The notes under the pieces: generated by a model
Told to the model about the DNA's origin: nothing
The model's input: only the letters and a program-made list of their open reading frames with translations
Databases searched by the model: none
Origin: a virus
Virus record (IMG/VR): IMGVR_UViG_3300037423_001547
Direction: 5' to 3' (one strand)
Length of the DNA: 64,000 nt
Position numbers and translations under genes: made by a program
In this document: one piece after another, positions 6,050 through 40,782 of the stretch
Numbering within the stretch: the stretch's first letter is position 1
Layout of the letters: the number at the start of each line of letters is the position of its first letter

Positions 6050-7234
6050 TTACAGGCCGACCCAGGCCGCCATGTGGTTCAGCGTGTCCGGCGTCCGACG
6101 GGCCACATGTACCAGCCCGCGGATCGTCTCCCGCGCGCCAGGGTGGTAGCGGGTCTGCTCCGGCGCCGCGTGACGGGCATCGACCAGCGACTGCAACGCC
6201 GCCTCCGTGTGCCCAGTCTCCATCTCCGTGCGGGCCCGGTCGATGAAGAAGTGGGCGCGGCGGCTGGTGGCGAGCGACGGCGGCAGCTTGATCCTGCGGG
6301 CCTGCGTCAGTGCGGCGTCGTAGTGACGCATCTCCACGGCCGCCGACATCCGGTGCAACATCACATTGGTCGGGCCGAACGACAGCCAGTGAACGTCGGA
6401 GGCGTCCCCGATCCGCTGCGCGATCTGCCGTGCCTCGGAGATGTGGCTGACGACGGTGCTCGTCTGCCGGGCCCGTGCTGCGATGACGGACGCCCCGAGG
6501 TGCAGCTGTCCCATGACCGCGTGCGCTTCGCGGGTGGGTTCGGCCTGCGCAACGGTTGTGTGCCCGGACGCGATGAGTCGCTGGCCGATGGTGTACTCGC
6601 CCTCCCGGAAGTAGACGAGGGCGCGCATGTACTGGCGGACCGCCCCCAAGCACGGGTCCGAAGCACGCTCGGCAGCCCACGCCATCCGGTCCAGGGCGAC
6701 CGCCGACAGATCGTAGTAGCCGAGCTTCACGCTGATGTCGTGGGCGGTCCGGTACGTCGAAGCCAGCGCCTGCCACAGCTCGGTCGACGGCATTGCCCAA
6801 GCAGTGTGCGTGAGTTCGGCGATCGCGCCGGGCAGTGCGCGGGCGGCGTTGCGGAGGTGGGTGGCGCGCACCTGCTCGCACAGCCGGTCCGCCTCCGTGA
6901 TGAGGACGTCGGCCGGCCGGGCGCGCAGGTCCGGGTTGGCGCCGAGGTCGTACAGGTCGAGGGCCTCGCGGATCGGGCGGACCAGTTCGGCGAGCCGGTC
7001 GCGTTGGAGTTCGGTCACGTAGGGCTGTCCCGTGAGGGTGGTGACGTCGACCTTCAGGGCGTGTGCTACGGCTGCGACGAAGTCGGCTGTGGCGGGGCGG
7101 GCGCCGCACTCCACTTGGTTGAGGAGGCTGTACGAGTAGGGGATGCGGTCGGCGAGTGAGCGTTGGGTGAGCCTGGCCAGTTTGCGTTGTTCGCGGATCC
7201 GCGCGCCGGTGTGGTCGTCGTCCAGTGTGGGCAT
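6050..7234 (-). CDS. XRE-family HTH regulator with a long helical-repeat (TPR-like) C-terminal domain, 394 aa
   Basis: N-terminal GARIREQRKLARLTQRSLADRIPYSYSLLNQVECGAR, then about 320 aa of helical repeat. GGAGA RBS before ATG 7234. Confidence 0.85.
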   Translation of the reverse strand: MPTLDDDHTGARIREQRKLARLTQRSLADRIPYSYSLLNQVECGARPATADFVAAVAHALKVDVTTLTGQPYVTELQRDRLAELVRPIREALDLYDLGANPDLRARPADVLITEADRLCEQVRATHLRNAARALPGAIAELTHTAWAMPSTELWQALASTYRTAHDISVKLGYYDLSAVALDRMAWAAERASDPCLGAVRQYMRALVYFREGEYTIGQRLIASGHTTVAQAEPTREAHAVMGQLHLGASVIAARARQTSTVVSHISEARQIAQRIGDASDVHWLSFGPTNVMLHRMSAAVEMRHYDAALTQARRIKLPPSLATSRRAHFFIDRARTEMETGHTEAALQSLVDARHAAPEQTRYHPGARETIRGLVHVARRTPDTLNHMAAWVGL

Positions 7235-8323: not shown

Positions 8324-8538
8324 GCGAGCCGGATCCCGCGGTAGCGGCCGGGCTCGCGGACGATCGCGCGCTTCGCTTCGAGTTCGACGAGCTGGTAGTG
8401 GACGGAGGCGCGGCTACGCAGGCCGACGGCGGCGCCGATCTCCCGGATGCTCGGTGCTTCGCCGTGGTCGGTGATGTGCTGGCGGATGGCGCGGAGGATG
8501 CGCTCCTGGGTGTCGGTGAGGTGGTCTACGCGGTGCAT
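8320..8538 (-). CDS. LexA N-terminal DNA-binding-domain-only protein (winged helix), 72 aa
   Basis: LTDTQERILRAIRQHITDHGEAPSIREIGAAVGLRSRASVHYQLVELEAKRAIVREP matches the LexA DBD pattern (LT..Q..IL...G.PSIREIG.AVGL.S.SSV). No cleavage site and no S24 peptidase domain. Confidence 0.8.
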   Translation of the reverse strand: MHRVDHLTDTQERILRAIRQHITDHGEAPSIREIGAAVGLRSRASVHYQLVELEAKRAIVREPGRYRGIRLA

Positions 8539-8546
8539 GCAACGAC

Positions 8547-8562
8547 TAGAGCACGTGTTCGA
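8547..8562 (-). promoter_or_regulatory. SOS-box-like site TCGAAC-ACGT-GCTCTA
   Basis: Minus-strand reading: left half matches the actinobacterial LexA box TCGAAC-N4-GTTCGA perfectly, right half 4/6. It abuts a TAAAAT -10-like hexamer (8563-8568) and lies 8 nt before ATG 8538. Confidence 0.5.
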
Positions 8563-8621
8563 ATTTTATGGCAAGGTGACGCACCAGGCAGGGCCCCGCA
8601 CGCGCGCGGCGGACGGGGCCC

Positions 8622-8900
8622 TCACCGGTTGCTGATCGTGAGGTGGATCGACCGCTCGTCGATCAGCCCCCCGACAGTGGTGATCTGGCAGACCAGCGTG
8701 TACGCGCTGTCGACCGTCCCACCCGACACCCGCTGAGTCACCACCGTGCCCGTCACAACAGGCGCCCCGACAGCAGTAAGCCCGGCAGGCACGGTGACCG
8801 TCGCAGAACTGATCGTGTCAGCGACCTCCGCGAGCCACGCCGACCAGTCCCAGGTGTAATCCAGCAGCGCGGAAGGATCCTTGACGTAACTGTCGGCCAC
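8622..8900 (-). CDS. putative fibre-tail adaptor-like virion protein, 92 aa
   Basis: The pattern DP.ALLDYTWDWS.WL...DTI...TV...GLT...........V.GGT.....Y.L...ITT.GG....RSI.L.I resembles small phage fibre-adaptor proteins. Assignment is from memory only. Confidence 0.5.
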   Translation of the reverse strand: MADSYVKDPSALLDYTWDWSAWLAEVADTISSATVTVPAGLTAVGAPVVTGTVVTQRVSGGTVDSAYTLVCQITTVGGLIDERSIHLTISNR

Positions 8901-8905
8901 GCGAC

Positions 8906-9970
8906 CTACCTCCGGATTATCAGGGTTCGCGGCTCGGCAGCCACGGCCAGGGTTCGGGATTCGGCGGCCACAGTCAGGCGCCGCCGCTCGGCGGGAATCA
9001 TGAGGGTGCGCTCCGGGCTGGGCACGGTGGTGGACGGCACGGTGAGCGGGCGCGCCGTGTCGACCTCCAGTGCGGGCGTCAGAACCGCCGTCTTGACGCC
9101 TACGAGGGGTAGTGCCGTCTCCACGGATCCGGCGGCGGCCAGCGTCGCCGTGACAGTCGACGCGAGCGGCTGGGCGGCCTCGACGGATCCGGCTGCCCCG
9201 AGCGCACCTGCCTTCACGCCGACGAGGGCCTGCGCGGTGTCCTGTTCGACAACCGGTACGAGAGTAGCGGTCTTGGTACCGACGAGCGCCTGCGCGCCGT
9301 CGGTCTCCGAGGCGATGCCGAGCGTGACTGTCTTGCTGGCGACCAGTTGCTGCGCTGCCTCGGTGGCGGATGCGACGCTGAGCGTTGTCGTCTTGCTGCC
9401 GGTCAGCGTCTGTGCGGTCTCGGTGGCGGACGCGATGCCGAGGGTCGCGCCGTTGACCACATCCGCGGCGGTGAAGTCATCGAAGCGAAGGGAGGACGTG
9501 GATTCAGCGCGGACGCCGACGCTGGTGCCGGTCGTGACAGCCGAGTCGGTGACGGAGATCCGCAGGGTCCCGTTGATGTACCCCTTGATCGCGGTCCCGA
9601 CGACTTGAAGTTTCACGACGTCGCCCGCTACGGCGGCCGCGGCGTAACTGCCGATGCTGGTGAAGCTGCCGCCGACCACCGAGAAGAGGTTCCACGAGGT
9701 GCCGTCGTTACGGAGCAAGTAGCCCTGGGTGATGTTCGCGTTGCCTCTGGCCCATACGCCGTGGCTGACGGCTGCTGTGGCGGCGATGGTCATCTGGACT
9801 GAGTGGTCGGAAGTGGCCATCGCTCCGGCAGCGCGCAGGATGATCGTGCCGCCCGCCGAGCCGCTGCTGAGTTGGTTGGAGATGATCGACCAGTCGCCGG
9901 ACACCTCAACCCACCCGGCCCCCAGGTCGGTGGAGTTGGCGCGGTTGAAGTCGTCGCTGAAGCTGGCCAC
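8906..9970 (-). CDS. minor tail / fibre-like protein: LamG (concanavalin-like) N-domain plus tandem 20-aa repeats, 354 aa
   Basis: N-terminal FSDDFNRANSTDLGAGWVEVSGDWSI... is typical of actinophage minor tail jelly-roll domains. Followed by about 6.8 repeats of TLGIASATETAQ.LVG.KT. Confidence 0.75.
   Translation of the reverse strand: MASFSDDFNRANSTDLGAGWVEVSGDWSIISNQLSSGSAGGTIILRAAGAMATSDHSVQMTIAATAAVSHGVWARGNANITQGYLLRNDGTSWNLFSVVGGSFTSIGSYAAAAVAGDVVKLQVVGTAIKGYINGTLRISVTDSAVTTGTSVGVRAESTSSLRFDDFTAADVVNGATLGIASATETAQTLTGSKTTTLSVASATEAAQQLVASKTVTLGIASETDGAQALVGTKTATLVPVVEQDTAQALVGVKAGALGAAGSVEAAQPLASTVTATLAAAGSVETALPLVGVKTAVLTPALEVDTARPLTVPSTTVPSPERTLMIPAERRRLTVAAESRTLAVAAEPRTLIIRR
9038..9445 (-). 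repeat. about 6.8 tandem 60-bp (20-codon) coding repeats
   Basis: aa 176-311 of the 8906..9970 product: TLGIASATETAQTLTGSKTT / TLSVASATEAAQQLVASKTV / TLGIASETDGAQALVGTKTA and so on. Confidence 0.85.
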
Positions 9971-11690: not shown

Positions 11691-12635
11691 TTACTGGGCG
11701 AGGCGCGCGGCGAGTTTGGCCGCGACCTTCTCTGCGATCTGTTCGGCGAGTGCCGGGTTCGCGGCGACCGCTGCGGCGAGCGCCGTGATCTGCGCGTCCG
11801 ACACGACCGGCGTCGTCAGCGTGTCGACCTTCTTCGCGAGCTCGCGCAGGCGGGTGTTGGTGTCCTTGAGGTAGGACTGGGGCTGCCAGGTCGTGTTGGT
11901 GGCCGCGTCCGGCGCATCCGGCGGGGCGGCGACCTGGTCGGTCTTCCAGACGGCGTCGTAGATGTCGGCCTTGGTGATTCCGGCCATGGGGTCCTCTTCC
12001 TGGGTGGGTCCTGCACGGAGGGTGGAGGCCACGTCGGAGCGGACCGCAGGCATGGCCATGATCTTGCCCGGGGCGTAGCCGGGGTCCCACTTGTCGTCGG
12101 ACCATTCGCCGTGCGCGATGACCGAGCGTTCCGTCCAGCCGTGGAAATCGAGGACCGCCGCCGACAACCGGCGGGCCGCCGCATACTGCGCCGCGCTCAT
12201 CTCATGCGATCCGCTGTACTGGATCTCGACGCCGTAGAAGTGGGCGTTGCCGTCCACCCCGTCGCTGTTGCCGCGCGTCGGGTGCAACTGGCCCGTGTAG
12301 TCCTCGTTGATGACGTGCTGCAGCACCGCCGGGTCGCCGCCGCCAGCGTGGTTCGCTCGGCCCCAGCCGATCAGGTAGACGGTGCCGTCGGCGCCGATGG
12401 AGAAGTGGCAGAGCGGGCCCGGCAGGTCGGAGAGTCCGTTGTAGAGGGTGCCTGCGGCGTAGGCCTTGGCGTCTTTCACGTCGGCGCCGGTGTGGTGCCA
12501 GATGAAGCCGTTGACCGGCCCCCACGCGCCCTTGCTGTTGCGGTTGTGGGTGGCCCAGCCGGAGATCTCGACGTACCGGAGACCCCACTTCTTCAGCTGG
12601 GTGACGGCCTCCGTGGCCGTCATCGGGGTCGCCAT
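11691..12635 (-). CDS. endolysin, N-acetylmuramoyl-L-alanine amidase (PGRP/Amidase_2 type), 314 aa
   Basis: WHHTG...GPLCHF.IG.DG.VYLIGWGRANHAG...HFYGVEI...IAHGEW...K.DPG motif series. ATG 12635 preceded by GGAG. The ORF-track start 12734 lies inside the regulatory motif. Confidence 0.9.
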   Translation of the reverse strand: MATPMTATEAVTQLKKWGLRYVEISGWATHNRNSKGAWGPVNGFIWHHTGADVKDAKAYAAGTLYNGLSDLPGPLCHFSIGADGTVYLIGWGRANHAGGGDPAVLQHVINEDYTGQLHPTRGNSDGVDGNAHFYGVEIQYSGSHEMSAAQYAAARRLSAAVLDFHGWTERSVIAHGEWSDDKWDPGYAPGKIMAMPAVRSDVASTLRAGPTQEEDPMAGITKADIYDAVWKTDQVAAPPDAPDAATNTTWQPQSYLKDTNTRLRELAKKVDTLTTPVVSDAQITALAAAVAANPALAEQIAEKVAAKLAARLAQ

Positions 12636-12710: not shown

Positions 12711-12726
12711 CCTTTGAATCGTAGCC
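12711..12726 (-). promoter_or_regulatory. late-gene motif copy (minus strand GGCTACGATTCAAAGG)
   Basis: AT-rich 15-mer shared with 37112..37126 and 39609..39623. Lies 23 nt before an RBS-preceded ATG (12687). Confidence 0.5.
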
Positions 12727-12742: not shown

Positions 12743-12757
12743 CCTATGAATCGCAGG
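12743..12757 (-). promoter_or_regulatory. variant late-gene motif copy (minus strand CCTGCGATTCATAGG)
   Basis: Second tandem copy, 32 nt upstream (in the minus sense) of the first. Confidence 0.4.
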
Positions 12758-12877
12758 CTATAGTTCGTTCATCCCTGGCTCAGGGGATGGCGGCGGGAGC
12801 GTGTCCGTGCGGGTCGCGCTCTCGCCGCGCCAGGCACCGGCACCCCCACCCGCACAAACCCGCACGCAGGAGCAGCC

Positions 12878-13615
12878 ATGCATGACCCGCTCACCGTCGC
12901 GTTCGAGATCCGCCGCCCCTGGCCGGAGCGCTCCACCCTCCCCGCCGCAGGCGACAAGGCCGCGCGCTGGCGCATCCGCCTCCACCACGACTGTGGCACC
13001 TGGTGCGCCGACGACCCACCTCACAAGGGCGGCGCGTTCCCCTGGTGGAAGCCCTCCAGCTACAGCGCGTTCTGGCGCCTCGCAGGCCGGGACTACTACT
13101 TCCCGCCCGTGATCACCGTGTGGCACCGGGAGCCTGGTGGGCGTGACGGCCTGACGGTGTGCAGCAGACGTGTCCAGCGTCGCGACGGTACGTGGCGGCG
13201 CACGCGCGGCTGGCGTTGGCACATTCACCATTACAAGATCCAGTTGCGGCCCTTCCAGAAGTGGCGCCGACGCCTGCTCACCCGCTGCGCCTGGTGCGGT
13301 GGCCGCTCCGTGAAGGGCGACCAAGTCAACGTCTCCCACTCCTGGAACGGCTCGCGATCCCGCTGGTGGCAGGGCGAACGTGGCTTGTTCCACCGGGACT
13401 GCTCCCCGATCGAACGGGCCCACGCCACCTGCGTGTGCACGCGGCCCGTGCTGGACCACGACACCTACGGGAGGTGCGCCAGCTGCGGCCGGTTCCGGCC
13501 CTTCGGCCTCACCGACGCCAACCTCGCCCGCGCCCGCGACCTCCAGACCATCCCGAAGGGCAGCCGCCGCGCCGACGCCGAGGAGAAGCCCGTGGCGGAC
13601 GGGGACGAGTCGTGA
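12878..13615 (+). CDS. hypothetical Trp/Arg/Cys-rich protein, 245 aa
   Basis: ATG preceded by GCAGGAG. First gene of the plus-strand island. CAWCGG...FHRDC and CASCG cysteine pairs. No family recognised. Confidence 0.65.
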   Translation: MHDPLTVAFEIRRPWPERSTLPAAGDKAARWRIRLHHDCGTWCADDPPHKGGAFPWWKPSSYSAFWRLAGRDYYFPPVITVWHREPGGRDGLTVCSRRVQRRDGTWRRTRGWRWHIHHYKIQLRPFQKWRRRLLTRCAWCGGRSVKGDQVNVSHSWNGSRSRWWQGERGLFHRDCSPIERAHATCVCTRPVLDHDTYGRCASCGRFRPFGLTDANLARARDLQTIPKGSRRADAEEKPVADGDES

Positions 13616-13715
13616 GCTACCTGTGCGCCGCGTTGGCGTTCCTGTTCGCGTTCGTCGTCCTCGCCCCACACGCCGAAGTCCACGTAGAGCCCGTACCTGC
13701 CGCGTGGAGCGGCCG

Positions 13716-13874
13716 ATGAACACCGCCGTCACCATCACCGCGATCATCGCCGCCGTCGCCCTGCTGAACAGCGGCATCACCGCCCTACGCGACATCGCCA
13801 AAGCGAAACACCAGACCGTCACTAAGCACTGCAAGACCTGCACCTGCGACAACAGCAAGGAGTCAGAGGCATGA
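13716..13874 (+). CDS. small membrane protein, 52 aa
   Basis: TM VTITAIIAAVALLNSGI, then KHCKTCTC. Its stop overlaps the epimerase start. Confidence 0.45.
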   Translation: MNTAVTITAIIAAVALLNSGITALRDIAKAKHQTVTKHCKTCTCDNSKESEA

Positions 13875-15547
13875 AGGTTCTGATCACGGGTGGCAGCGGC
13901 TTCATCGCCTCATGGTGCCGCCGGGAACTCCTCGCGCGAGGCCACAGCGTGCTGGTCATGGACCACCAGGACCGCCGCCAGCACCTCGCAGACGGCGAGG
14001 AGTTCTTCCTCGGCGACGTCCGTGACGCAACCGCCGTCACCGAAGCCGCCGCCCACGTCGACGGGATCATCCACCTCGCCGCCGTCCTCGGCACCCAGGA
14101 GACCATCAGCAACCCGCGGCCCAGCGCCGAGACGAACATCCTCGGCAGCCTGAACGTCTTCGAGGCCGCCGTGCAGTACAACCTCCCTGCGGTCTATGCA
14201 GGGGTGGGGAACGCGTGGATGCGGGACCACGGAACCGGCTCCTACACGATCAGCAAGACGGCGGCCGAGGACTTCGTCCGCATGTTCAACGCCTACCGCA
14301 GCGGCCGTATCACGATCGTCCGCCCCGTCAACGCCTACGGGCCGGGGCAGAGCATCGCCGCCCCCTACGGCTGCGTCGATCCGAGCACACCCGTACTGTG
14401 CGCCGACCTCGTCTGGAGGCCGATCTCCAGCCTGCGGGAAGGTGACGAGATCGTCGGCATCGACGAGTACGCGCCAGCGAAGAAGCAGCGAAAGCTGCGT
14501 CGGTCCACCGTGACGGGCTCGTGGGCAACGCGAAAGCATGCCGTCCGTCTCCACTTCGACGACGGCCGGTCGGTCACCTGCTCGCTCGATCACCCCTGGC
14601 TCGCATCCTCACCGTCGGGGCAGATCCGCCAGTGGATCGAGGCGCGGAAGCTCCGCACAGGGGACCGCGTCGTGTGGGCCACGGATCAGACCTGGGACGC
14701 TGGGGACAGCCGTTCCCACGGCTACGTCTCTGGACTCCTCGACGGCGAGGGGCATGTAGGCGGCCACGGCCCGGTATTCACGCAGAACCCCGGCCCCGTG
14801 CTGGACGAGTACCTCTACCTCCTCAAAGAGTTCGGGTTCGAGCCCCAGACCCGGACGAAGGAGAACGGCCGGATCGTCGTGGACACGTCGGTCTCGGGAC
14901 TGACTTCACGACTTCGGCTGCTGGGCGAGTTCCGCCCCGTCCGTCTCCTTGCGAGGGCCTCGCAGCTCTGGGAAGACAAGGCGCCGAACGGCGGCCGGGC
15001 GACCATCACGGCCATCGAAGAGCTGGGCGAGACGGACCTGTGGGACGTCGAGACCACGTCGCACACCTACATCGCCAACGGGTTCGCGTCACACAACTCC
15101 AGCAAGGTCCGCAAGATCATGCCCGCCCTGACGTGCCGTGCGCTGACCGGTGCGGACATCGAGGTGTACGGCGACGGCACCCAGATCTCCGACTGCGTGT
15201 ACGTCGGCGACGTGGCGCGGACGTTCGTGACCGCGTTTGAGCACACCGCCGCGCACGGGCCGACGGAGAAGCCGGTGGAGGTCGGGCCGCTCACGTCGGT
15301 CACCGTCAACGACATCGCCCGCCTGGTCGCTGAGGAGGCCGCGCGGGTGACGGGGCGGGAGCCGGTCGGGTTGAAGCATCTGCCGATGCGGCCGGGTGAG
15401 GTCCCGAACGCTGTCGTCTCCTCCGACACCAGCACGCTGCAGCAGATCGGGATGACGGCCGCGGACTTCGTGCCGCTCGACGAGGGCATCCACCACACGG
15501 TCCGCTACTACGCCGAGCAGTGGCTCCCCGGCTACCTGGCCGCCTGA
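13871..15547 (+). CDS. NAD-dependent sugar epimerase/dehydratase (extended SDR) interrupted by an intein, 558-aa precursor
   Basis: GGSGFIAS Rossmann motif, catalytic YTISK (YxxxK) and NAYGPGQ. The exteins (167 + 149 aa) join into a normal 316-aa SDR. Confidence 0.9.
   Translation: MKVLITGGSGFIASWCRRELLARGHSVLVMDHQDRRQHLADGEEFFLGDVRDATAVTEAAAHVDGIIHLAAVLGTQETISNPRPSAETNILGSLNVFEAAVQYNLPAVYAGVGNAWMRDHGTGSYTISKTAAEDFVRMFNAYRSGRITIVRPVNAYGPGQSIAAPYGCVDPSTPVLCADLVWRPISSLREGDEIVGIDEYAPAKKQRKLRRSTVTGSWATRKHAVRLHFDDGRSVTCSLDHPWLASSPSGQIRQWIEARKLRTGDRVVWATDQTWDAGDSRSHGYVSGLLDGEGHVGGHGPVFTQNPGPVLDEYLYLLKEFGFEPQTRTKENGRIVVDTSVSGLTSRLRLLGEFRPVRLLARASQLWEDKAPNGGRATITAIEELGETDLWDVETTSHTYIANGFASHNSSKVRKIMPALTCRALTGADIEVYGDGTQISDCVYVGDVARTFVTAFEHTAAHGPTEKPVEVGPLTSVTVNDIARLVAEEAARVTGREPVGLKHLPMRPGEVPNAVVSSDTSTLQQIGMTAADFVPLDEGIHHTVRYYAEQWLPGYLAA
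14372..15097 (+). mobile_element. intein, 242 aa, with a single LAGLIDADG-like motif
   Basis: Starts with Cys1 (CVDPSTPVLCADL). Block-B-like SLDH. GYVSGLLDGEGHV. Ends ...YIANGFASHN followed by Ser(+1) at 15098. Confidence 0.85.
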
Positions 15548-15562
15548 ACGAAGGAGGCGGCC

Positions 15563-16165
15563 GTGGCCCGCTTGCAGATCCTGCAACTTCCCGAAGGCGC
15601 TGGCGACGACCGGCCGCCGTTCGTCCTCGTCATCGACCAGCACCAGCCGCAGCGCTACGCACTCGGCATCGGCGAGGACGAGCCCGAGATGGTCGACGAG
15701 TTCGCCGGCGTCGCCGAGCAGATCGGGGCCCGTGTCGTGTTGGTGTTCCAAGAGACCGTCGAGATCCCTGCGAATGAGACCGCCGTGCACGCGCAACCCC
15801 TGATGCGCGTCGCGGACTTCGCGGGGCTCGACGAGATCAAGCGGCTGACCGAAGAGCGTGACGAAGCCCGCCTGTGGGCCCGACACGGCTACGAGATCGG
15901 GCAACGCCACTGCGGCTGGTCCGACCACGGCGTCGCACCCGACTGGCTCACCGAAGGTTGGCCGCCCCACTTCGACGACTGCGAGCACTTCAAGCGTGCG
16001 GCGGACTACGACGAGGCGCTCACCCGCGTCCGCAACCTGCCCGAGGAGCCCAAGTTCATGGATGCCCTGCACTCCGACTCCGCTGGCTACCGGCACGGCT
16101 ACCGAGTGGCCATCGGCGATGCCAAGCGCGCCACCCGAGCCCGAGCCGCAGAGGACGGAGGCTGA
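15563..16165 (+). CDS. hypothetical protein, 200 aa
   Basis: GTG preceded by AAGGAGG. Coding bias. No motif recognised. Confidence 0.65.
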   Translation: MARLQILQLPEGAGDDRPPFVLVIDQHQPQRYALGIGEDEPEMVDEFAGVAEQIGARVVLVFQETVEIPANETAVHAQPLMRVADFAGLDEIKRLTEERDEARLWARHGYEIGQRHCGWSDHGVAPDWLTEGWPPHFDDCEHFKRAADYDEALTRVRNLPEEPKFMDALHSDSAGYRHGYRVAIGDAKRATRARAAEDGG

Positions 16166-16166
16166 C

Positions 16167-17180
16167 GTGCGCTGCCACTTCTGGTCCGCTGACCAGGCGG
16201 GTTCCAGTCTGTACAGGGCTACCCTGCCCGGGATGAGCTTGCAGTGGCTCGGTCACAATGTGTCCGGCGGCATGCGACTCCCCCAGGACTGGCCTGCCCT
16301 CGACGCGGTCGTTGGCTGCCGGGTGGCCAAGCGGGAGCCGTCCCTGATGTGGCACAAGCTGAAGGACGAGGGGAAGCGGCTCGTCCTCGACCTCGACGAC
16401 GACTACTTCCACATCGACCCCAGCAACGCCCACGCCCGCCAGGTCTGGGACACCGACATGCTCGGCAGGCTCGTCGCCAACATGCAGATCGCAGACCTCG
16501 TCACCTGCTGCTCCGAACCCCTCGCCGACGTCCTCCGCAACTACGCCGAAAACGTGCGAGTGATTCCGAACGGGCTGCCGGCGCAGTACCTGGGCACGCC
16601 CCGCGACTACGAGGCCGCGGATCGTCCGCTGTTCGTGGGCTGGGCTGGCACGTCGTCCACGGTGGCGGAGTTGCCAGAGACTGTTCGCGCCCTCAACCGG
16701 ATCGCCCAGTACCCGCGGCCCGGCGGCGGGGTGCAGGTCCGCATCGTTGGGATCAGCCCGGAGCACGCGATGGGCCTGGGGCTGCGCGGCCGGCGGGTCG
16801 GTGCGTTGGGTTGGGTGGAGCGGTTCGAGCACTACCTGCACGCGGTGTCCGAGTTCGACGTGTGGTGTGCGCCGTACAGGGACACGGCGTTCAACCGGGC
16901 GAAGTTCGCTACGAAGTGGCTGGAGGCCTCGGTGCTGGGGATCCCGCTGATCGCCTCCGATATCGAGCCGTACCGGCGGGTGATCCGGCATGGGGAGAAC
17001 GGGTTCCTCGTGAAGTACGAGCACGAGTGGGGACGCTGGCTTAAGCGGCTCGCCGACGACCCGGAGCTGCGCCAGCGGATCGGGATGACGGCGCGGGGTG
17101 AGGCGTCGGGCAGCATCATGCAGGCGTTGCATCACCAGTGGGAGGCGGCCGTCCGCATGCCTGCGGAGGTGACCGCATGA
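16167..17180 (+). CDS. GT-B fold glycosyltransferase (GT4/GT1-like), 337 aa
   Basis: GTG 16167 follows GGACGGAGG, 1 nt after the previous stop. C-terminal half FVGWAG...E..A..LGIP.IASD....R.VI.HGENGFLV is the retaining GT-B signature. Confidence 0.85.
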   Translation: MRCHFWSADQAGSSLYRATLPGMSLQWLGHNVSGGMRLPQDWPALDAVVGCRVAKREPSLMWHKLKDEGKRLVLDLDDDYFHIDPSNAHARQVWDTDMLGRLVANMQIADLVTCCSEPLADVLRNYAENVRVIPNGLPAQYLGTPRDYEAADRPLFVGWAGTSSTVAELPETVRALNRIAQYPRPGGGVQVRIVGISPEHAMGLGLRGRRVGALGWVERFEHYLHAVSEFDVWCAPYRDTAFNRAKFATKWLEASVLGIPLIASDIEPYRRVIRHGENGFLVKYEHEWGRWLKRLADDPELRQRIGMTARGEASGSIMQALHHQWEAAVRMPAEVTA

Positions 17181-17422
17181 TCGCCCGCCTGACCTGGATC
17201 CCTGACAACGGCGAGAGCGAGACCCTCACCGTAGACATCGCAGCACCCTGGCTCGAAGAGTTCCGCTCCTTGATCGGCACGCCCGAGTGGGCAAGCAGCG
17301 AAGCCGTCATGTGGATCCCCTGCCGTACCCGCGATGACCAGCCCATGACGAAGCGTCTGTTCCGGCTCGCACGCATCATCGCACTCGAACCCGTCCCAGC
17401 TGCGGAGAGGTCGACGCCTTGA
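17177..17422 (+). CDS. hypothetical protein, 81 aa
   Basis: ATGA overlap with the glycosyltransferase stop. GCGGAGG RBS. Confidence 0.5.
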   Translation: MIARLTWIPDNGESETLTVDIAAPWLEEFRSLIGTPEWASSEAVMWIPCRTRDDQPMTKRLFRLARIIALEPVPAAERSTP

Positions 17423-17604
17423 CCGGGCCAGATCATTACCGCGAAGGCGAGCACCTCCTCGGCCGCTGCCTGGAATGGGGCCACGGCGAGCAACGCCAAG
17501 CCCTGGCCGTCGAAGCCGTCGCCCACTTTCTTGCCGCGCTCGTCGCCGCCACAGCCACCCACCAGCACCCCGAATCCGTCCGATGGCAGGAGGCCACCGA
17601 ATGA
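17419..17604 (+). CDS. hypothetical protein, 61 aa
   Basis: TTG start overlapping the previous stop, GGAGAGG RBS. Confidence 0.4.
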   Translation: MTGPDHYREGEHLLGRCLEWGHGEQRQALAVEAVAHFLAALVAATATHQHPESVRWQEATE

Positions 17605-18470
17605 TCGACGGCAAAAGAGTCATTGCGTGGACCCCCTACGGCCGGGTCCGGACGTACAGCATCCTCTTCCAGTACCTGCGGCGGGACTTCGAGGATGGCC
17701 TCCTCGACGAGGTCTGGCTGTACATGAACACCGACCCGACCGGCCAGGAAGACGACATTGCCTACGCCCACCAGCTCGCCGAGGAGCACTCGACCTGGGT
17801 CAAGCTCAAGCACCGGCCCGAAGGCGTCCACCTCGGCCACCTGCCCAAGCAGAGGTACACCGGCCTGGCCTACCGGGAAATGATCGACCCGGACACGGTC
17901 TACCTGCGGCTCGACGATGATGTCGTCTACCTGCACGAGGACGCGATCGAGAACCTCGTGCGCGCCCGCATCGAGATGCCGGCGCCGACCGCCGTGTTCC
18001 CGATCATCGTCAACAACGCGATCTGCTCCCACTTCCTCCAGGTCTGCGGGAAGGTCCCCATGGAGTGGGGTGAGGTCAAGCCGTACTGCATGGACCCGAC
18101 CGGCTGGGCCAACGGGCCCTTCGCCGTCAAGCTGCACGAGATGCTCCTCGACCACATCGACGCCGGCACCGTCGACCAGCTCTACCTGTACCAGGACTTC
18201 CCGCTCCAGCCAGGCACGCAGTTCTCCGTGTCCTGCTTCGCGAGCCTCGGCAGCATGTACGCCGGCCTCCCGCACGGGCCCGGCATCCTCGTGCCGGATG
18301 AAGAGGAGAGCTGGCACACCATCCACCGGCCGCTCGCCACCGGCGCCCCGAACATCCTCCGCGGCGACGCGATCGTCAGCCACTGGTCGTTCTTCCCGCA
18401 GCATCCGTTCCTCAACAACACCACGCTCCTGGACCGGTACCGGGAGATCGCAGACAAGGCGGTGGCCTGA
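17601..18470 (+). CDS. putative nucleotide-diphospho-sugar transferase (GT-A-like, DxD), 289 aa
   Basis: ATGA overlap and GGCAGGAGG RBS. YLRLDDDVVYL DxD-type motif. Family not firmly recognised. Confidence 0.55.
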   Translation: MIDGKRVIAWTPYGRVRTYSILFQYLRRDFEDGLLDEVWLYMNTDPTGQEDDIAYAHQLAEEHSTWVKLKHRPEGVHLGHLPKQRYTGLAYREMIDPDTVYLRLDDDVVYLHEDAIENLVRARIEMPAPTAVFPIIVNNAICSHFLQVCGKVPMEWGEVKPYCMDPTGWANGPFAVKLHEMLLDHIDAGTVDQLYLYQDFPLQPGTQFSVSCFASLGSMYAGLPHGPGILVPDEEESWHTIHRPLATGAPNILRGDAIVSHWSFFPQHPFLNNTTLLDRYREIADKAVA

Positions 18471-18676
18471 TGGCCCAGATCAGCGTCGAGGACGCCCTCG
18501 AAGAGTTCCGGAAGCAGTACGGCAAGGCCGTCGACGAAAACGTCCTCCTCCGCGCGCAGAACACGGCCTTGGAGCGGCGGGTGACGGAGCTGGAGCAGCA
18601 ACTCGAAGGCCGCCCCGCACCCGCCGGCCCGGATCTGGCCGCGCAGCCCCCGTTCCTGGAGGGCGAGCAGGGTTAG
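18470..18676 (+). CDS. small coiled-coil protein, 68 aa
   Basis: ATG overlaps the previous TGA. Last gene of the plus-strand island. Its stop overlaps the stop of the convergent fibre gene. Confidence 0.45.
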   Translation: MAQISVEDALEEFRKQYGKAVDENVLLRAQNTALERRVTELEQQLEGRPAPAGPDLAAQPPFLEGEQG

Positions 18677-19740
18677 GCGATTCGGCGGATGTACATGTAG
18701 GAGCTGGTCAGCACCGATACGGCGGCCGCGTTCGACACGGACTGCGACCACTGGTAGGTGATGTTGCCTGCGCTGCCGACGGTGACGATGGACTCCTCGA
18801 TGATGGCGATCGACAGGGTGTCGGCCTGGTAGATGGTGGTGGTTGTGTAGCCGTGGCCGGAGAATCGGCCTTGGGTCTGCTGACGTGAGGTGAATCCGGC
18901 GGTGACGTCGCAGGGGCCGTGTACGAGTTTCAGGCCGGTGGTGCTGGCGGGTACGGCCCAGGCGGATTTGAAGTCGGTGTTGGCGGTGTCCGCGGTCGTC
19001 GCGAAGATCACGAAGCGGACGAGGTAGATGCCTCCGGAGACGACGCTTGCTGTCAGGTGGGGGTCGTCTGCGACGGTGGCGTTGTTGGTGCGGGCGGTGT
19101 CGGACGGTTTGAGAACGTATCGTTCCTGCCCGATTCCGGTGGCGGAGAGGTTCCCGCCGACGGCGAGGTTCCCGGTGATGTTGGCGCTGCTTGCCACGCT
19201 GAGGTTGATGCCGACGTTGAGGCTGTCGTCGGTGGCCAGTGTGTTGGCGGCGGATCGGTAGAGGTTGACGTCGGGGGCGGTGGACCCGCCTGGCCCCCAG
19301 TTGTGGGTGCCGTCGGTGTCGATCTCGAATCGGTCCTGGGTGTCTCCGGTGACGCGGCTGGAGATCAGGTCGGTGGTGGTGGCGGCGTTGACGACGGCGA
19401 GGCTGGCGCTGCTGCCGCTGGAGTTGATGTTGATCTGTTTGCCGGACGCCAGCCGCAGCGTGGAGTTGAAGCTTGCGCTGCCGTTGGGGATTTCCACCCA
19501 GGAGCCGGACGCCGGGCTGGTGCCGTTGGAGAAGTAGGTCCGGTAGCTGGTGTCGGTCTCGAAGATGCCCTTGCCCGAGTACGGAGACGAGGGCCGCGTC
19601 GACGACGTGCACGATGCGAAGCCGACTGCGGCGTCGACCTTGTCCCAGTTCTGGCCGATGTCCTGGCTGTAGTTGACCAGTTCGGAGCCGTCGCTCTTGC
19701 TCTTGTACAGGCCGAGGCGTGTGGTGGACGGGTCAGGCAT
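18673..19740 (-). CDS. tail fibre / minor tail protein, 355 aa
   Basis: The N-terminus PDPSTTRLGLYKSKSDGSELVNYSQDIGQNWDKVD is typical of actinophage fibre N-termini. Ser/Thr/Asn-rich beta-type body. Confidence 0.8.
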   Translation of the reverse strand: MPDPSTTRLGLYKSKSDGSELVNYSQDIGQNWDKVDAAVGFASCTSSTRPSSPYSGKGIFETDTSYRTYFSNGTSPASGSWVEIPNGSASFNSTLRLASGKQININSSGSSASLAVVNAATTTDLISSRVTGDTQDRFEIDTDGTHNWGPGGSTAPDVNLYRSAANTLATDDSLNVGINLSVASSANITGNLAVGGNLSATGIGQERYVLKPSDTARTNNATVADDPHLTASVVSGGIYLVRFVIFATTADTANTDFKSAWAVPASTTGLKLVHGPCDVTAGFTSRQQTQGRFSGHGYTTTTIYQADTLSIAIIEESIVTVGSAGNITYQWSQSVSNAAAVSVLTSSYMYIRRIA

Positions 19741-20203
19741 GCCGGGTCTCCTTTGCGGCCTTGGCGTGGCGGGTGCGTTCAGCGAGGACGGATCGGCGCA
19801 TGGCGGCGATCTCCTGGCCGGATGCGCGCGGCCATTGCCGGATCACGTCCAGGGGGTCCGCGGCGCGGGTCTTCTGTGGCGGAACCACGGCCTTGGCGAC
19901 TTCCTGTTTGGCGCGTTCCAGCAGTGTCAGGTGGCTGTCACGGGCGACCTGCACGCTGTCAGCAGTGAACAGCGCCGGGACTTCTCCGGGTTCGCGGAGG
20001 CGGGCGGCGAACGGTTCGTGCAGGATCATGTCGAGGGCGGTTTCCGCGTCGACGTCGTACTCGGCCATCCGCCAGTCGACGGCATTCTTCGGGAATACGT
20101 GCAGGTGAGTGCTGCCGTCGGGGCGTTCCATGACGATCATCCAGCAGGGTGTTTCCCGATCTGGTCGGTATTCCTTCACATCGGTGATGGTGTAGGTGTC
20201 CAT
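19733..20203 (-). CDS. hypothetical protein, 156 aa
   Basis: Complete ORF between the Tal-like and fibre genes. Coding bias. Confidence 0.6.
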   Translation of the reverse strand: MDTYTITDVKEYRPDRETPCWMIVMERPDGSTHLHVFPKNAVDWRMAEYDVDAETALDMILHEPFAARLREPGEVPALFTADSVQVARDSHLTLLERAKQEVAKAVVPPQKTRAADPLDVIRQWPRASGQEIAAMRRSVLAERTRHAKAAKETRHA

Positions 20204-20212
20204 GGGGTCTCC

Positions 20213-23122
20213 TCAGATCCGGAAGCACCAGAAGTAGATGGACCAGAGCCCGGATCCGGCGGGGCTGATGGTGGCGGTGAACCCGGTGGCGTCGGATGCA
20301 GTGCAAGAGTTCGAATGGACCACATCGTCACGAATGGTGTAGATGGGCAGCATTTGGGATGCCTTGGTGGAACCGAAGGAGATGGAGATGGACGATGAGC
20401 CGCTGGTGGCGTCGATGGACCCGGTGAAAAGTCCCATGTTCGTGCCGCGGTCGGTGAAGTCGTCCCACTTGCCGGTGTGGTGGGTGATGCTGTCGTTGCC
20501 GAACCAGAGCACGTTTTCGTTGCCGGTTCCCTGCCCGAACCCGACAAAGGCTTGGTTCGCGTCAGCGTAGAATTCCCCGCCTTGACCGTATGAGACCTGC
20601 GCTTTGTTCGAGTCGGCGTAAAAGTTTCCCCCCTCGGTTCCGCCTCTGTTGAACCCGGCGTAGAGGGCTCCCGGCGCGGCCCATACGTAGCCGCCGCGTC
20701 GTTGCTCGCTGGGGAACGTGATGCTTTCGAGGGCGGCGGCGGAACTGGTCAGATAGACGCGGTTGGCGCACGTGACGCCTGCGTCGTCGAAGGGGCTGGA
20801 GTTGACGCCGACGGAGACGTCCGTGCCTGCCGAGACGCCGTTGATGGACCCGTAGTCGGTGCCGGTGTTGGCGTAGAAGCGGATCTCGGGCAGGAGTGTG
20901 GCGGTTGGGTTGATCTCGATACGGCGGCCGCTGGTCCCGGATTTGAGCTGCCCGATGATGGACACCGACCCGTCAGCCGCCGCGATGTTCACCGTCTGCG
21001 TGCCTGAGCCGTTGTAGGCAAGCAGCCCTGCGCTGGAGAGTTCAACGCGCGCCCCGCTGTCGGCGGTCTTGATGCGCGAGCCGACGATCCAGTCCGCGCT
21101 GATCGTGCCAGCGGTGACCTTGGTGACGGTGAGATCAGAGATGTGGGCGTCGTCGATGAGGAGCGCGGTCGCCGTGGCCGCATCCGAGGGCCCGCTCTTG
21201 TTGCCCGCCTTGTCGACCGCGATCACCCGGACGTAGCGGGCCGATGTCTCCTCCACCTGCACCGTGAAGACGACCGGGATCTGCGCCTGCATCATGCCCG
21301 CGTTTGCGACGGCCTTGCCGAGCAGCGTCGAGGTGGACGGCGTGAACGTCGGCTCGTAGCTCACGTGGACTTCGAGGTGGTCGAGGTCCGCCTCCAGGTT
21401 GTACGTACCGCCACTGGACTTGCCAAGGGTGTGCGTGATCTGCACAGCGATCCGTGAGCCGGCCACCGACGGGGCCGCCGGCGTGGACGGCGGAATGTTG
21501 TCCGAGGTTGCCACGAACGTCGTGGTAGCCGACCAGGCGCCAGTGTTGCCGGTGGAGTCGACGCCACGGATCTGCACGTCGTAGCCGACACCAGGGCTGA
21601 GGTCGAGGAGTTCGGCGGTGGTGTGGTCCCAGGCCACCGTCATGTACTGCCACTGGGTGGACGGTGCGGCAAACGGCTGCTTCCAGACCTGCATGTCCTG
21701 CCAGCGGATCTGGCTGACCTGGGACCAGGTGGCCGGGTAGATCATGTCGGTGTCGATGGCCCAGCGGATGTCGTAGTGGTCGCCGTCCAGGACGGTGGAG
21801 CCGTCGACGTTGTTCGGGGCGTTCCAGGACAGGATCGTGCGGGCGCGGGTGAAACCGCGGTTGTCGAGGTAGGCGGCGCCGGTGAATGGGGTGATGAATA
21901 CCGGTACGCCTGGCGTCGAGGTGTCGCTGTTGGGGCGGGAGCCGACGGGTTCGGTGCTGGTGTTGGTGAGCTGGCGGGAGAAGTCGCCGACGGTCACCGT
22001 GGACGTGGCGTCGGTTTCCCATTCGACGTACTGGGTGAGATCAGTCCAGGTGCCGTTCGCGTCGCGGTAGGCGACCGTGTACTGCTCGGTGATCGCCCAC
22101 TGGGTTTCGGCGACTTGCAGTTTGATCGGGTTGATTCGTACGCCCCGGAACGTGATCTCCGTGCTCGTGTCGACGAGCCCACTGTCCGGGTCGTACACCC
22201 ACACTCGGTCACCGACGACGAAGCTGCCGTGGACGTCGTAGTCGGCCGTGCTGAGGGTGAGGGCGTTGCGGGTCGACGTGAACTGGGACAGGGCCAGTTG
22301 CGCCCGTGTGGCCGCGTTTGCGGTCGCCGTGTCCGACTCGGACACCAGCCGTGTCAGCTTCAGCGCGTTGCCGTGGATGTCCTTGTACGGAGTCGCCGGG
22401 CTGATGTTCGCCGACCCGGTGGCGATGCTGGAGCCCTCGCCCTCCGCGAGGAGCACCACCCGCGTGCTGTAGTCCTCCACATCCCGGGTGACGTCCACGC
22501 TGCCGGGCAGCGCACGGAGGAACATGTCCTCCCCGGTCTCCTTGGTGGTGATCACACAGGTGGGGTTGGTGACGAACAGGCTGCTGTCCGGGCCCGCGTC
22601 CAACGTCCCGTTGCCGTTGACCCGCCAGGACACCGGCACCGAAGTGGTGGACATGGTGTCGCACACGTAGGTGATCGCCTCACGGGGCGACTCGTACTGA
22701 TGCCGGCCGGTGTACTGCCCGGACACGCTGTAGATGGTGCCTGCGGTGACCGCGCCGCTGGCTGGCAGGAGCATGTTGATGGCGGTGGCGAAGGATGCGG
22801 ACGCGGGCTCAACCGCGTTCTCGTAGACGTCGCCCTTGCCGTCCTCGTCCCCCAGCCAGAACGCCATGCCGACCCCGCCGATGGACAGATCGTCTTGGGG
22901 AGCCGCGGTGCGGCCGTCGTCGCCGATGGTGCGGGTGCGGAGGACACCGACGTAGCGGGCGGCAGTCAGCAGGTTGTCGCCGTACTGGGCCGGGTCCAAC
23001 CGGCCGGGGATGATCGCGACATGCCCGAAGTAATCGAGGCGGTCGAGGACGTCGCGGGGCGTCCCAGGGAGGAGCTTGACCTCCCACGAGCCGAGGGCTT
23101 TGAGAACCTCCTGGACAGCCAC
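20213..23122 (-). CDS. large minor tail protein (Tal-like tip protein with FN3-type repeats), 969 aa
   Basis: Position after Dit. N-terminal tail-tip-like domain, FN3-like segments (PPSTPAAPSV...), Gly/Ser-rich C-terminal receptor-binding-like region. Confidence 0.85.
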   Translation of the reverse strand: MAVQEVLKALGSWEVKLLPGTPRDVLDRLDYFGHVAIIPGRLDPAQYGDNLLTAARYVGVLRTRTIGDDGRTAAPQDDLSIGGVGMAFWLGDEDGKGDVYENAVEPASASFATAINMLLPASGAVTAGTIYSVSGQYTGRHQYESPREAITYVCDTMSTTSVPVSWRVNGNGTLDAGPDSSLFVTNPTCVITTKETGEDMFLRALPGSVDVTRDVEDYSTRVVLLAEGEGSSIATGSANISPATPYKDIHGNALKLTRLVSESDTATANAATRAQLALSQFTSTRNALTLSTADYDVHGSFVVGDRVWVYDPDSGLVDTSTEITFRGVRINPIKLQVAETQWAITEQYTVAYRDANGTWTDLTQYVEWETDATSTVTVGDFSRQLTNTSTEPVGSRPNSDTSTPGVPVFITPFTGAAYLDNRGFTRARTILSWNAPNNVDGSTVLDGDHYDIRWAIDTDMIYPATWSQVSQIRWQDMQVWKQPFAAPSTQWQYMTVAWDHTTAELLDLSPGVGYDVQIRGVDSTGNTGAWSATTTFVATSDNIPPSTPAAPSVAGSRIAVQITHTLGKSSGGTYNLEADLDHLEVHVSYEPTFTPSTSTLLGKAVANAGMMQAQIPVVFTVQVEETSARYVRVIAVDKAGNKSGPSDAATATALLIDDAHISDLTVTKVTAGTISADWIVGSRIKTADSGARVELSSAGLLAYNGSGTQTVNIAAADGSVSIIGQLKSGTSGRRIEINPTATLLPEIRFYANTGTDYGSINGVSAGTDVSVGVNSSPFDDAGVTCANRVYLTSSAAALESITFPSEQRRGGYVWAAPGALYAGFNRGGTEGGNFYADSNKAQVSYGQGGEFYADANQAFVGFGQGTGNENVLWFGNDSITHHTGKWDDFTDRGTNMGLFTGSIDATSGSSSISISFGSTKASQMLPIYTIRDDVVHSNSCTASDATGFTATISPAGSGLWSIYFWCFRI

Positions 23123-39608: not shown

Positions 39609-39623
39609 CCTTTGAATCGTAGG
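39609..39623 (-). promoter_or_regulatory. late-gene motif copy (minus strand CCTACGATTCAAAGG)
   Basis: Lies 24 nt upstream of the terS ATG 39584. Confidence 0.5.
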
Positions 39624-39667: not shown

Positions 39668-39874
39668 ATGGCCAGCAAGCGGAGCAGCAAGAAGAAGACG
39701 CCGAAGCTCGGCACCGGCAAGCGGTTCGCCGCGGTCGAAGCCAGCGCCGCGAAGTCCGGCGCCCGCAACCCGGCGGCCGTCGCCGCGGCGATGGGGCGGA
39801 AGAAGTTCGGGGCGAAGAAGATGGCCGCACTCGCGGCGGCCGGCCGACGGCGCGCCGCGCGCAAGGGGCGCTGA
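39668..39874 (+). CDS. highly basic Lys/Arg/Ala-rich small protein, 68 aa
   Basis: MASKRSSKKKTPKLGTGKRFAA...GRKKFGAKKMAALAAAGRRRAARKGR. Divergent from terS. Confidence 0.55.
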   Translation: MASKRSSKKKTPKLGTGKRFAAVEASAAKSGARNPAAVAAAMGRKKFGAKKMAALAAAGRRRAARKGR

Positions 39875-40763: not shown

Positions 40764-40782
40764 GGTGGTCCCCCCTGGGTGT

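Follow-up and report, generated by a model that had tools for sequence, protein, structure and literature searches.

A sugar-enzyme island with an intein-bearing SDR gene and a structured leader beside the tail genes of a temperate siphophage

Phage glycosylation systems and the island

To our knowledge, glycosylation of virions by phage-encoded enzymes has been shown experimentally in only a few mycobacteriophages. The genes described for this role include the glycosyltransferases gp108-110 of Che8 and genes 35-38 of Corndog (Freeman et al. 2023, Cell Host Microbe, as relayed in PMC11256854, PMC12363180 and PMC13313380), and actinophages, temperate F1-cluster phages among them, are known to use transferases of their own to glycosylate capsid and tail-tube proteins. 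An island of nine plus-strand genes (g1 to g9) with sugar enzymes at its core was analysed in IMGVR_UViG_3300037423_001547, a viral record from IMG/VR; "the window" below means the whole stretch of 64,000 nucleotides (nt). Three of the nine products, a short-chain dehydrogenase/reductase (SDR; g3), a GT4-type glycosyltransferase (g5) and a GT-A-fold glycosyltransferase (g8), are supported as together forming a soluble module of three enzymes for making a tailored sugar and transferring it. The island as a whole is tentatively read as a glycosylation module that is complete in itself, works in the cytoplasm and modifies virion proteins of its own phage during lytic growth, a reading whose probability we put just short of even.

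The island resembles the Che8 and Corndog genes in that those too are actinophage sets of several soluble glycosyltransferases, carried by temperate and lytic phages within or beside the structural genes. With Corndog there is the further likeness that g8 is a remote relative of gp36, and that relatives with the type-B island also carry a methyltransferase. In contrast to both, the island adds an SDR and a GT4 enzyme, and lies on the opposite strand behind a leader of its own; no C-terminal acceptor tails were seen on the capsid or tail tube of the phage.

A pair of SDR and glycosyltransferase genes in BM-cluster Streptomyces phages (Frankenweenie gp170/gp171, Kela, Satis and JustBecause) includes the closest phage homologue of g3, at 68-75% identity to the extein, the part of g3 outside its intein. 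In Frankenweenie, the one genome inspected, the SDR gene lies on the opposite strand directly beside minor-tail genes and is followed by its partner, a weakly GT2-like transferase. Frankenweenie differs from the window in being non-temperate and in carrying no GT4, g8 or intein, and the annotation of its gp170 as 'UDP-glucose dehydrogenase' is at odds with the SDR-type sequence.

The gtrABC operons and TarP, to which a sequence-only reading of the window had likened the island, share with it that they are prophage-borne sugar-transfer genes near tail or attachment functions. On content the likeness to gtr operons fails, as searches of Pfam, PHROGs and NCBIfam found no GtrA flippase, GtrB bactoprenol transferase or GtrC membrane transferase in the island. 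TarP is absent from the best 50 of the 67 matches of g8 to the Protein Data Bank (PDB) in Foldseek, and the island differs again in pairing two transferases with a sugar-tailoring SDR. Another comparison is with collagen-type, hydroxylation-coupled protein glycosylation, of which Mimivirus L230 is an example. The top PDB fold matches of g8 include the GT-A domains of LH3 and ColGalT1, and one relative of the window (locus L182) has in the same slot a prolyl 4-hydroxylase (P4H)-like oxygenase dependent on 2-oxoglutarate (2OG) and Fe(II), together with GT2 and GT4 enzymes. Against this, the template-modelling (TM) scores of g8 in these matches are 0.43-0.48, generic for GT-A folds, and the window has no oxygenase; no collagen-like Gly-X-Y repeats were seen in those of its structural proteins that were read.

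The window represents a temperate siphophage genome or prophage of 68% GC, with nearly all genes on the minus strand in the order replication, terS/TerL, portal, capsid, tail, tape measure, minor tail, lysis, repressor-like gene and serine integrase. The island (12878-18676) breaks up the minus-strand late region between a fibre-like gene and the endolysin gene (Table 1). Its nine genes were called from open reading frames (ORFs) supported by GC content at third codon positions (GC3; 0.86-0.90 for the island ORFs), from their translations and from inspection of start sites, and the successive spacings from g1 to g9 are 100, -4, 15, 1, -4, -4, -4 and -1 nt. Genes called independently by JGI and Logan on identical metagenome contigs yield the same nine products. 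Both GC skew and AT skew change sign across the island, which has a GC content of 0.681 against 0.684 for the window. These observations uphold the coordinates, strand, tight coupling and position between tail-fibre and lysis genes given by the sequence-only reading, and of its "nine or ten" genes they support nine and not ten; the intein, the structured leader and the variable slot described below were absent from it. A close cultured relative was not found: by megablast the island matched none of 50,697 phage records, and the tail protein reached at most 32% identity over 31% of its length among cultured phages.

Table 1. Positions of the features discussed, counted from the first letter of the window or, in the last two rows, on the relative named
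Feature	Position	Strand	Remarks
Serine integrase	1622-3262		temperate-phage marker
Repressor-like gene	6050-7234		temperate-phage marker
Amidase_2 endolysin	11691-12635	minus	divergent from the island; first gene of the lysis unit
15-bp near-palindrome CCTnYGAwTCRnAGG (CCTnCGATTCAnAGG)	12711-12725, 12743-12757		two copies, 32 bp apart, in the divergent region
15-bp near-palindrome	37112-37126 (portal), 39609-39623 (terS)		only other good copies in the window
Island 5' leader	12757-12880	plus	-10-like element directly after the second palindrome copy, then a leader of ~105 nt
Leader -10-like TAnnnT (TATAGT)	12759-12764	plus	
Leader hairpin 1	12770-12789	plus	
Leader hairpin 2	12790-12828	plus	loop GUGCGGGU at 12807-12814
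Leader ACCCGCAC repeats	12848-12855, 12858-12865	plus	degenerate copy at 12836-12843
Leader Shine-Dalgarno sequence	12869-12872	plus	ATG at 12878
g1	12878-13615	plus	245 amino acids (aa); Trp/Arg/Cys/His-rich (W 6.1%, R 15.1%, C 4.1%)
g2	13716-13874	plus	52 aa; one hydrophobic helix; stop overlaps g3 start
g3	13871-15547	plus	558 aa; extended-SDR NAD-dependent sugar-nucleotide epimerase/dehydratase family
Intein in g3	14372-15097	plus	class 1 by sequence; 242 aa; residues 168-409 of g3; in-frame insertion
g4	15563-16165	plus	200 aa; no family match (Pfam, PHROGs, NCBIfam, PADLOC)
g5	16167-17180	plus	GT4-type (GT-B) glycosyltransferase by Pfam and PHROG
g6	17177-17422	plus	81 aa; small protein, no family assigned
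g7	17419-17604	plus	61 aa; one hydrophobic helix; small protein, no family assigned
g8	17601-18470	plus	289 aa; GT-A fold (modelled); unannotated family; invariant D105-D106-D107
g9	18470-18676	plus	68 aa; weak coiled-coil family matches only
Fibre-like protein	18673-19740	minus	355 aa; Ser/Thr-rich (26%); convergent, stop codon overlaps g9 stop
L182 cassette	14505-20291	opposite to tail genes	GT4, P4H-like 2OG-Fe(II) oxygenase and GT2
L191 cassette	14522-19623	opposite to tail genes	GT4, O-methyltransferase-type, SDR and GT2

Sugar enzymes and the intein in g3

The g3 product scores 121 bits against PF01370 in two pieces (cutoff 20.9) and also matches phrog_540. Removal of the intein leaves an extein of 316 aa that aligns over its full length with GalE-type structures (UDP-glucose 4-epimerase 4zrm, E 6e-25). 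The Rossmann GxxGxxG NAD-binding motif is present as TGGSGFI at residues 6-12, and the YxxxK pair, Y125 and K129, is invariant across 10 aligned homologues. In the alignment to 4zrm, the catalytic Ser/Thr about 24 residues before the Tyr is replaced by a family-invariant Val112 and the loop before YxxxK (region of residues 108-129) is about 13 residues shorter in this family; an alternative alignment to 6wjb likewise has no Ser/Thr at the catalytic position. Several database records label proteins of the g3 family 'UDP-glucose dehydrogenase' or 'UDP-glucose 4-epimerase', labels for which support is lacking.

The g5 product scores above the Pfam cutoffs for Glyco_trans_1_4 (PF13692, 44.5 bits, cutoff 27) and Glycos_transf_1 (PF00534, 38.9 bits, cutoff 26.4) and matches phrog_7162 at E 4e-41. 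By eye, the second Glu of the EX7E motif is there (LEASVLGIPLIAS) and the first is off the canonical spacing. It is 33-34% identical to glycosyltransferases of Zukovirus phages (KimJongPhill gene 6).

No Pfam match (E <= 0.1) or NCBIfam match (E <= 0.01) was found for g8, nor membership of a curated GT2-type family, and its only remote sequence match is to phrog_4447 (E 0.004) and Corndog gp36 (hhalign E 1.6e-4). The AlphaFold2 (AF2) model has a mean predicted local distance difference test score (pLDDT) of 88.7 and a predicted TM score of 0.89. In Foldseek it has 67 PDB matches at E <= 1e-3, of which the best 50 are GT-A enzymes and related nucleotidyltransferases, with CvHAS, LH3, ColGalT1 and GalNAc-T at E ~1e-5, and the best match in BFVD is a Pithovirus fusion of a glycosyltransferase and a methyltransferase (TM 0.76). 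The segment VYLRLDDD carries D105, D106 and D107, which are invariant in 34 homologues and lie at the end of a central strand, after strand E99-104 of the AF2 model. Judged by the model, g8 belongs to an unannotated family of glycosyltransferases with a GT-A fold. When its profile was run against PDB sequences, only fucose lectins were returned, at E > 0.07, which was taken as noise.

For g3, g5 and g8 no transmembrane segment was predicted, and there is no flippase among the nine island proteins. Both transferases had been recognised in the sequence-only reading, as a GT-B (GT4-like) enzyme and a DxD-containing GT-A-like enzyme, and the Pfam scores of g5 and the model and fold matches of g8 now bear this out. 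The SDR had been recognised as well, in keeping with the PF01370 score above gathering threshold, but g3 is not the ordinary uninterrupted enzyme that was described, as residues 168-409 belong to an intein.

By its sequence, the element in g3 is a class-1 intein that is predicted to splice. The insertion site reads AAPYG|C...SHN|SSKVRK, against AAPYG-(T/P)SKVRK in intein-less alleles, and falls within a conserved motif that follows directly on the NAYGPGQ segment. The insertion is missing from nearly all homologues, including alleles whose exteins are 84-91% identical to that of g3. The element has Cys1 (C168), a block B CSLDH, a single LAGLIDADG motif (GLLDGEGH), the terminal SHN409 and Ser+1 (S410); C168, CSLDH, SHN409 and S410 are invariant at the same site in all seven intein-bearing protein clusters (55-100% identity). 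It scores 24.8 bits against LAGLIDADG_3 (cutoff 22.5), falls below the cutoffs for Intein_splicing and TIGR01445, and matches the intein region of NF038136 at E 6e-19. As there is only one LAGLIDADG motif, endonuclease activity is uncertain. The intein is rare, being found in only about 5% of SDR alleles; among the ~60 type-A islands examined it is present at loci L010, L011, L170 and L200 besides the window's own contigs.

The closest similarity outside the SDR family is to the TerL intein of Ralstonia phage Claudette, with 33% identity from Cys1 to the terminal SHN (E 9e-40), and weaker matches were obtained to mycobacteriophage sequences, of which the one inspected is annotated as a terminase. 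The TerL inteins of Ralstonia phages (Claudette, Gervaise and GP4) and those of mycobacteriophages are of the same family and have the same splicing blocks and single GxLDGEGH motif, whereas the host protein in the window is an SDR sugar-nucleotide enzyme and not a terminase. In a 2025 survey that covered about 800 actinophage inteins, no SDR or sugar enzyme is among the 19 types of host protein listed (bioRxiv 10.1101/2025.01.02.630785), and the mycobacteriophage intein survey of Kelley 2016 mentions no SDR host protein. The nearest sugar-nucleotide precedent that we found is an archaeal UDP-glucose dehydrogenase (PMC4760082). The SDR is a new type of intein host protein, with the intein apparently transferred from terminase genes, and this bears on how inteins switch host genes.

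Two further mobile elements were seen among the relatives. An intein of the same family (38% identity; Cys1, GMFDGEG) lies at L211:13679-14160 (+) in a different protein downstream of the tail genes, where the contig ends within it. In the sister island of L004, a free-standing HNH_3 endonuclease gene (8506-9045) is located between the GT4 gene and g8, and the presence of this gene and of the g3 intein marks the locus as a frequent target of selfish elements.

A variable slot with a conserved leader and palindrome

A search with g8 returned 373 homologous proteins, many of them in Streptomyces genomes and several in named culture-collection strains. For g3 there were 1465 matches, again many in Streptomyces; the intein and other SDR enzymes account for part of this total. 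The cassette is widespread among actinobacterial prophages and not exceptional, and this abundance weakens the earlier suggestion that such an island would be notable for a Streptomyces-type phage. Because the cassette is abundant, either outcome, a glycan on the virion or on the lysogen, would hold for a large group of soil prophages. Lysogens include Streptomyces sp. NPDC050416 (GCA_044458845.1), which has the intein allele, the S. anulatus strain of assembly GCA_026339775.1, S. capoamus JCM 4253, S. naphthomycinicus TML10 and S. triculaminicus JCM 4242.

The trio SDR-GT4-g8 was surveyed by context look-ups and by scans of three collections. It is found on one strand, in the same order and convergent on tail genes in all ~25 actinobacterial prophage loci located through g8 or the SDR, and also in 36 IMG/VR loci out of the 79 to which the tail protein led, with the arrangement kept down to 39% g8 identity. 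The host genomes include Streptomyces, Actinomadura, Acrocarpospora and unclassified Actinomycetota assemblies, and the genes on which the trio converges encode homologues of the fibre, of a 156-aa protein and of the 969-aa and 499-aa tail proteins. Other genes vary among islands, namely g1, g2, g4, g7, a DUF6221 gene, an HNH endonuclease gene and a second SDR paralogue. Fourteen close relatives without g8 hold other sugar genes in the same slot, two of which were annotated (L182 and L191, Table 1); in more distant relatives no cassette was detected by these probes. Since relatives hold different sugar cassettes there, the slot is a variable glycosylation locus, of which the window has the commonest version. 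The exchange of whole sugar-tailoring sets in one slot is a signature of diversifying selection on a surface glycan.

The region of about 240 bp between the divergent endolysin gene and island is conserved even where the flanking genes differ, and the separate regulatory region proposed from the sequence alone is real. Immediately behind its second palindrome copy comes the TAnnnT element and then a leader of about 105 nt with two hairpins. A covariance model of this leader (R1) detected it, as a single copy and without exception 5' of the island, in 51 of 83 sequences searched. The leader is present whatever the first island gene and in both cassette types. Of 28 base pairs, 18 have compensatory changes, and 94.8% of cells are paired, against 43-51% with slid partners; none of 500 shuffles reached the observed values. 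The alignment behind these figures (A8) was fitted to the model, which inflates the pairing, though pair-type diversity is nonetheless high. Many of the pairs are G-U and fit the plus strand only. The host-type TAnnnT element was conserved in the leader sequences inspected, while a scan with the sigma-70 consensus found no promoter, and terminator-like sites were not above chance.

The loop of hairpin 2 is complementary to the two to three repeats that abut the Shine-Dalgarno sequence, and in five loci the loop variant UUGCGGGUU occurs with AACCCGCAA repeats. Most columns in this pattern are invariant, and a single position co-varies, in five loci that may be related. A pseudoknot or an alternative pairing is suggested, but an inverted-repeat binding site at the DNA level would fit equally well. 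No Rfam family was matched other than below threshold and inside coding sequence, and the leader is a candidate for a new cis-regulatory RNA. With these 51 loci and the g8 proteins, the analysis defines a candidate cis-regulatory RNA and an unannotated GT-A family; also new here are the SDR-enzyme intein, the variable-slot architecture and the late-unit palindrome.

The near-palindrome, which contains a -10-like hexamer, TACGAT, precedes the ribosome-binding sites of terS, portal and the lysis unit by 7-12 nt. Of 33 IMG/VR loci with TerL at least 64% identical (L036-L067 and L094), 31 have it at, or close to, the terS position, the portal position or both, and it is absent from the 27 more distant IMG/VR contigs. 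In the loci retrieved from the tail side it is confined to the island/lysis junction, with type-A and type-B islands alike, save for a weak additional match in L182. It may act as a late promoter or operator, or as an RNA element. As there is no copy near the repressor gene, we infer that it belongs to the late units and is not an immunity operator. The island promoter is interleaved with this terS/portal/lysis motif, and therefore coupling of the island to the late programme is implied; because the motif is nearly palindromic, it would fit positive as well as negative coupling. At the terS copy, a small and very basic plus-strand ORF (39669-39870, MASKRSSKKKTPK...) that is absent from the GC3-filtered list diverges from terS with the palindrome between them, the same divergent layout as at the island/lysis junction.

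Possible acceptors, accessory proteins and neighbouring genes

If the island glycosylates virions, transcription would start at its own promoter and run through the structured leader. The g3 precursor would splice out its intein to yield the 316-aa SDR, which would convert a host nucleoside diphosphate sugar into a tailored donor. The GT4 enzyme g5 and the DxD-containing GT-A enzyme g8 would then transfer sugars in sequence to the acceptor, with g2, g4, g6, g7 and g9 as accessories and g1 as an unrelated passenger. In this scheme we infer when the island is expressed, which sugar it handles and what the acceptor is; the most plausible targets would be the tail or tail-fibre components encoded next to the island, and possibly also the capsid. 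The 355-aa fibre-like protein, whose homologues adjoin g8 in nearly all loci, is a candidate for the acceptor or for a linked function.

The conserved trio convergent on tail genes, across both sets of loci surveyed, argues for this virion-directed role. Combinations of a glycosyltransferase with a P4H-like oxygenase are of the type known for hydroxylation-coupled protein glycosylation, and the oxygenase-containing variant in L182 therefore points to a protein acceptor. In Zukovirus phages, the homologues of g5 share the strand of the structural genes and stand, together with genes for a methyltransferase and a dehydratase-like SDR, immediately before terS/TerL. Frankenweenie, with its SDR gene beside minor-tail genes, has no integrase or repressor (PMC10652959), so a role of the SDR in lysogeny only is impossible in that phage. 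Furthermore, g8 shares the motifs DDD, NN..C..F and H..F.PQ with Corndog gp36, the archetype of phrog_4447, which sits among genes 35-38, a group with matches in glycosyltransferase and methyltransferase families. The virions of Corndog are glycosylated, and glycosylation of the capsid reportedly requires gp38 (Freeman 2023, as cited in PMC12363180). The solubility of all three enzymes, the absence of a flippase, the virion glycosylation established for lytic and temperate actinophages and the interleaving of the island promoter with the late-unit motif also speak for a virion-directed role.

Several observations weigh against a virion target. The island is moron-like in lying on the opposite strand with a host-type -10 element and a long leader of its own. 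In Che8 the glycosylation sites are Ser/Thr-rich C-terminal extensions, and no such extension was seen on the capsid protein (32722-33636) or the major tail protein (29615-30175). Apart from the remote match of g8 to gp36, none of the island proteins is similar to Che8 gp108-110 or to Corndog gp35, gp37 or gp38, and none matches phrog_8858, 1721 or 854. Fibre sequence does not co-vary with cassette type, as in L163 the fibre is 83% identical and yet the cassette is of type B. As g9 and the fibre gene converge and overlap with no terminator between them, strong late expression of both would lead to transcriptional collision, and the small membrane-type proteins g2 and g7 could indicate an acceptor associated with the membrane.

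The last of these points would also suit lysogenic conversion, in which the island is a moron expressed from the prophage and its soluble enzymes glycosylate an envelope polymer of the host or a lipid-linked precursor at the cytoplasmic face of the membrane, changing the receptor and blocking superinfection. TarP, a GT-A enzyme that acts in the cytoplasm, glycosylates wall teichoic acid in this way, and in P22 gtr adjoins the tailspike gene, so the linkage to receptor-binding genes fits modification of a receptor too. The phage is temperate, the opposite orientation and autonomous promoter and leader with a host-type TAnnnT are as expected of a moron, the tail-fibre/lysis junction is a classic moron slot, and the gene content is as highly variable among relatives as in serotype-converting loci, with the membrane-type g2 and g7 coupled to the enzymes. 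We nevertheless regard conversion as unlikely, if a serious alternative: no GtrA-, GtrB- or GtrC-type or other membrane transferase or flippase was found in the island, nor any PADLOC defence match; the closest SDR homologue is beside the tail genes of a non-temperate phage; the Zukovirus GT4 homologue stands in front of packaging and structural genes; g8 has a relative within the set of putative glycosylation genes of Corndog, whose virions are reported to be glycosylated; and the late-unit motif overlaps the island promoter. We know of no precedent for glycan-based lysogenic conversion in Streptomyces, and the paper on the Samy prophage makes no mention of glycosyltransferase or epimerase genes (PMC11302927). 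The sequence-only reading had set conversion beside virion glycosylation and favoured the former; both readings stand, but the evidence leans towards a lytic, virion-directed role and conversion is the weaker of the two.

The late coupling, the soluble enzymes and the occurrence in lytic as well as temperate phages would fit, in addition, a change made during the lytic cycle to a host target other than the virion, such as masking of receptors or wall polymers so that progeny are not lost on debris, or modification of a host protein or small molecule. This is improbable in our view, since it leaves unexplained the conserved adjacency to tail and not to lysis genes, and we know of no actinophage precedent for it. 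Glycosylation of the phage's own DNA on hypermodified, hydroxymethylated bases is the least credible of the explanations, and we give it hardly any weight. Other phages do use GT-A and GT-B transferases with sugar-nucleotide enzymes for this purpose (PMC6024577 and bioRxiv 10.1101/2023.12.21.572611), but the subset of window ORFs scanned contained no TET/JBP dioxygenase, C5-methyltransferase or dNMP (deoxynucleoside monophosphate) hydroxymethylase, the sole DNA-modification gene found among them encodes an N6/N4 methylase, and the cassette is linked to the tail genes, with about 27 kb between it and the closest replication-type gene identified. Virion glycosylation can also be extended to a fuller picture, which is speculative and has a small chance of being right as a whole. 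The slot would then be a hypervariable virion-glycan locus in which interchangeable sets (SDR, GT4 and the new GT-A family; methyltransferase sets; prolyl/lysyl-hydroxylase-like sets) modify tail proteins with sugars and thereby determine host range or resistance to host defences, all driven through one structured leader RNA with pairing between the loop and the repeats at the ribosome-binding site, and with some alleles gated post-translationally by a terminase-derived intein.

Among the other island proteins, g1 agrees in length and in its Trp/Arg/Cys-rich composition with the 245-aa protein of the sequence-only reading, and g2, with its single hydrophobic helix, is the small transmembrane protein named there. 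The g1 protein has no match in Pfam, PHROGs, NCBIfam or PADLOC, and a homologue search gave 700 matches, which form a large unannotated family. Arthrobacter phages have homologues beside RusA genes, Gordonia phages have them too, and in the islands of L014 and L018 they occupy other positions. The AF2 model of g1 is poor (pLDDT 56), with only residues 170-230 confident; a Foldseek search gave nothing and a PDB profile search only noise. It is a variable passenger and not a sugar enzyme. Homologues of g2 lie directly upstream of the SDR gene in L015, L019 and L024, and g7 is directly upstream of g8 in L004 and L012; these two are the only island proteins with a hydrophobic helix, a single one in each. 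The N-terminal 78 residues of g4 resemble gp31 of Streptomyces phage VWB, and g4 homologues are a frequent accessory in islands, while g9 comes after g8 in most of them. PADLOC assigned no defence family to any island protein.

On the lysis side, a 16-codon upstream ORF with its own GGGAGG ribosome-binding site (12687-12637, minus strand) stops 1 nt before the endolysin ATG (12635), which suggests translational coupling of the two. Two more small proteins of no assigned function, one of which has a PHROG family, come after the holin-like genes. Just upstream of the late operon is a gene (40137-40922, minus strand) for a phage protein with a C-terminal PASTA domain, a domain that binds peptidoglycan or beta-lactams. 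Downstream of the lysis genes, a structural-type protein (8906-9970, minus strand) contains about eight tandem repeats of about 14 aa with the pattern A-S/G-x-x-E-A/T-A-Q-x-L-x-G-x-K-T.

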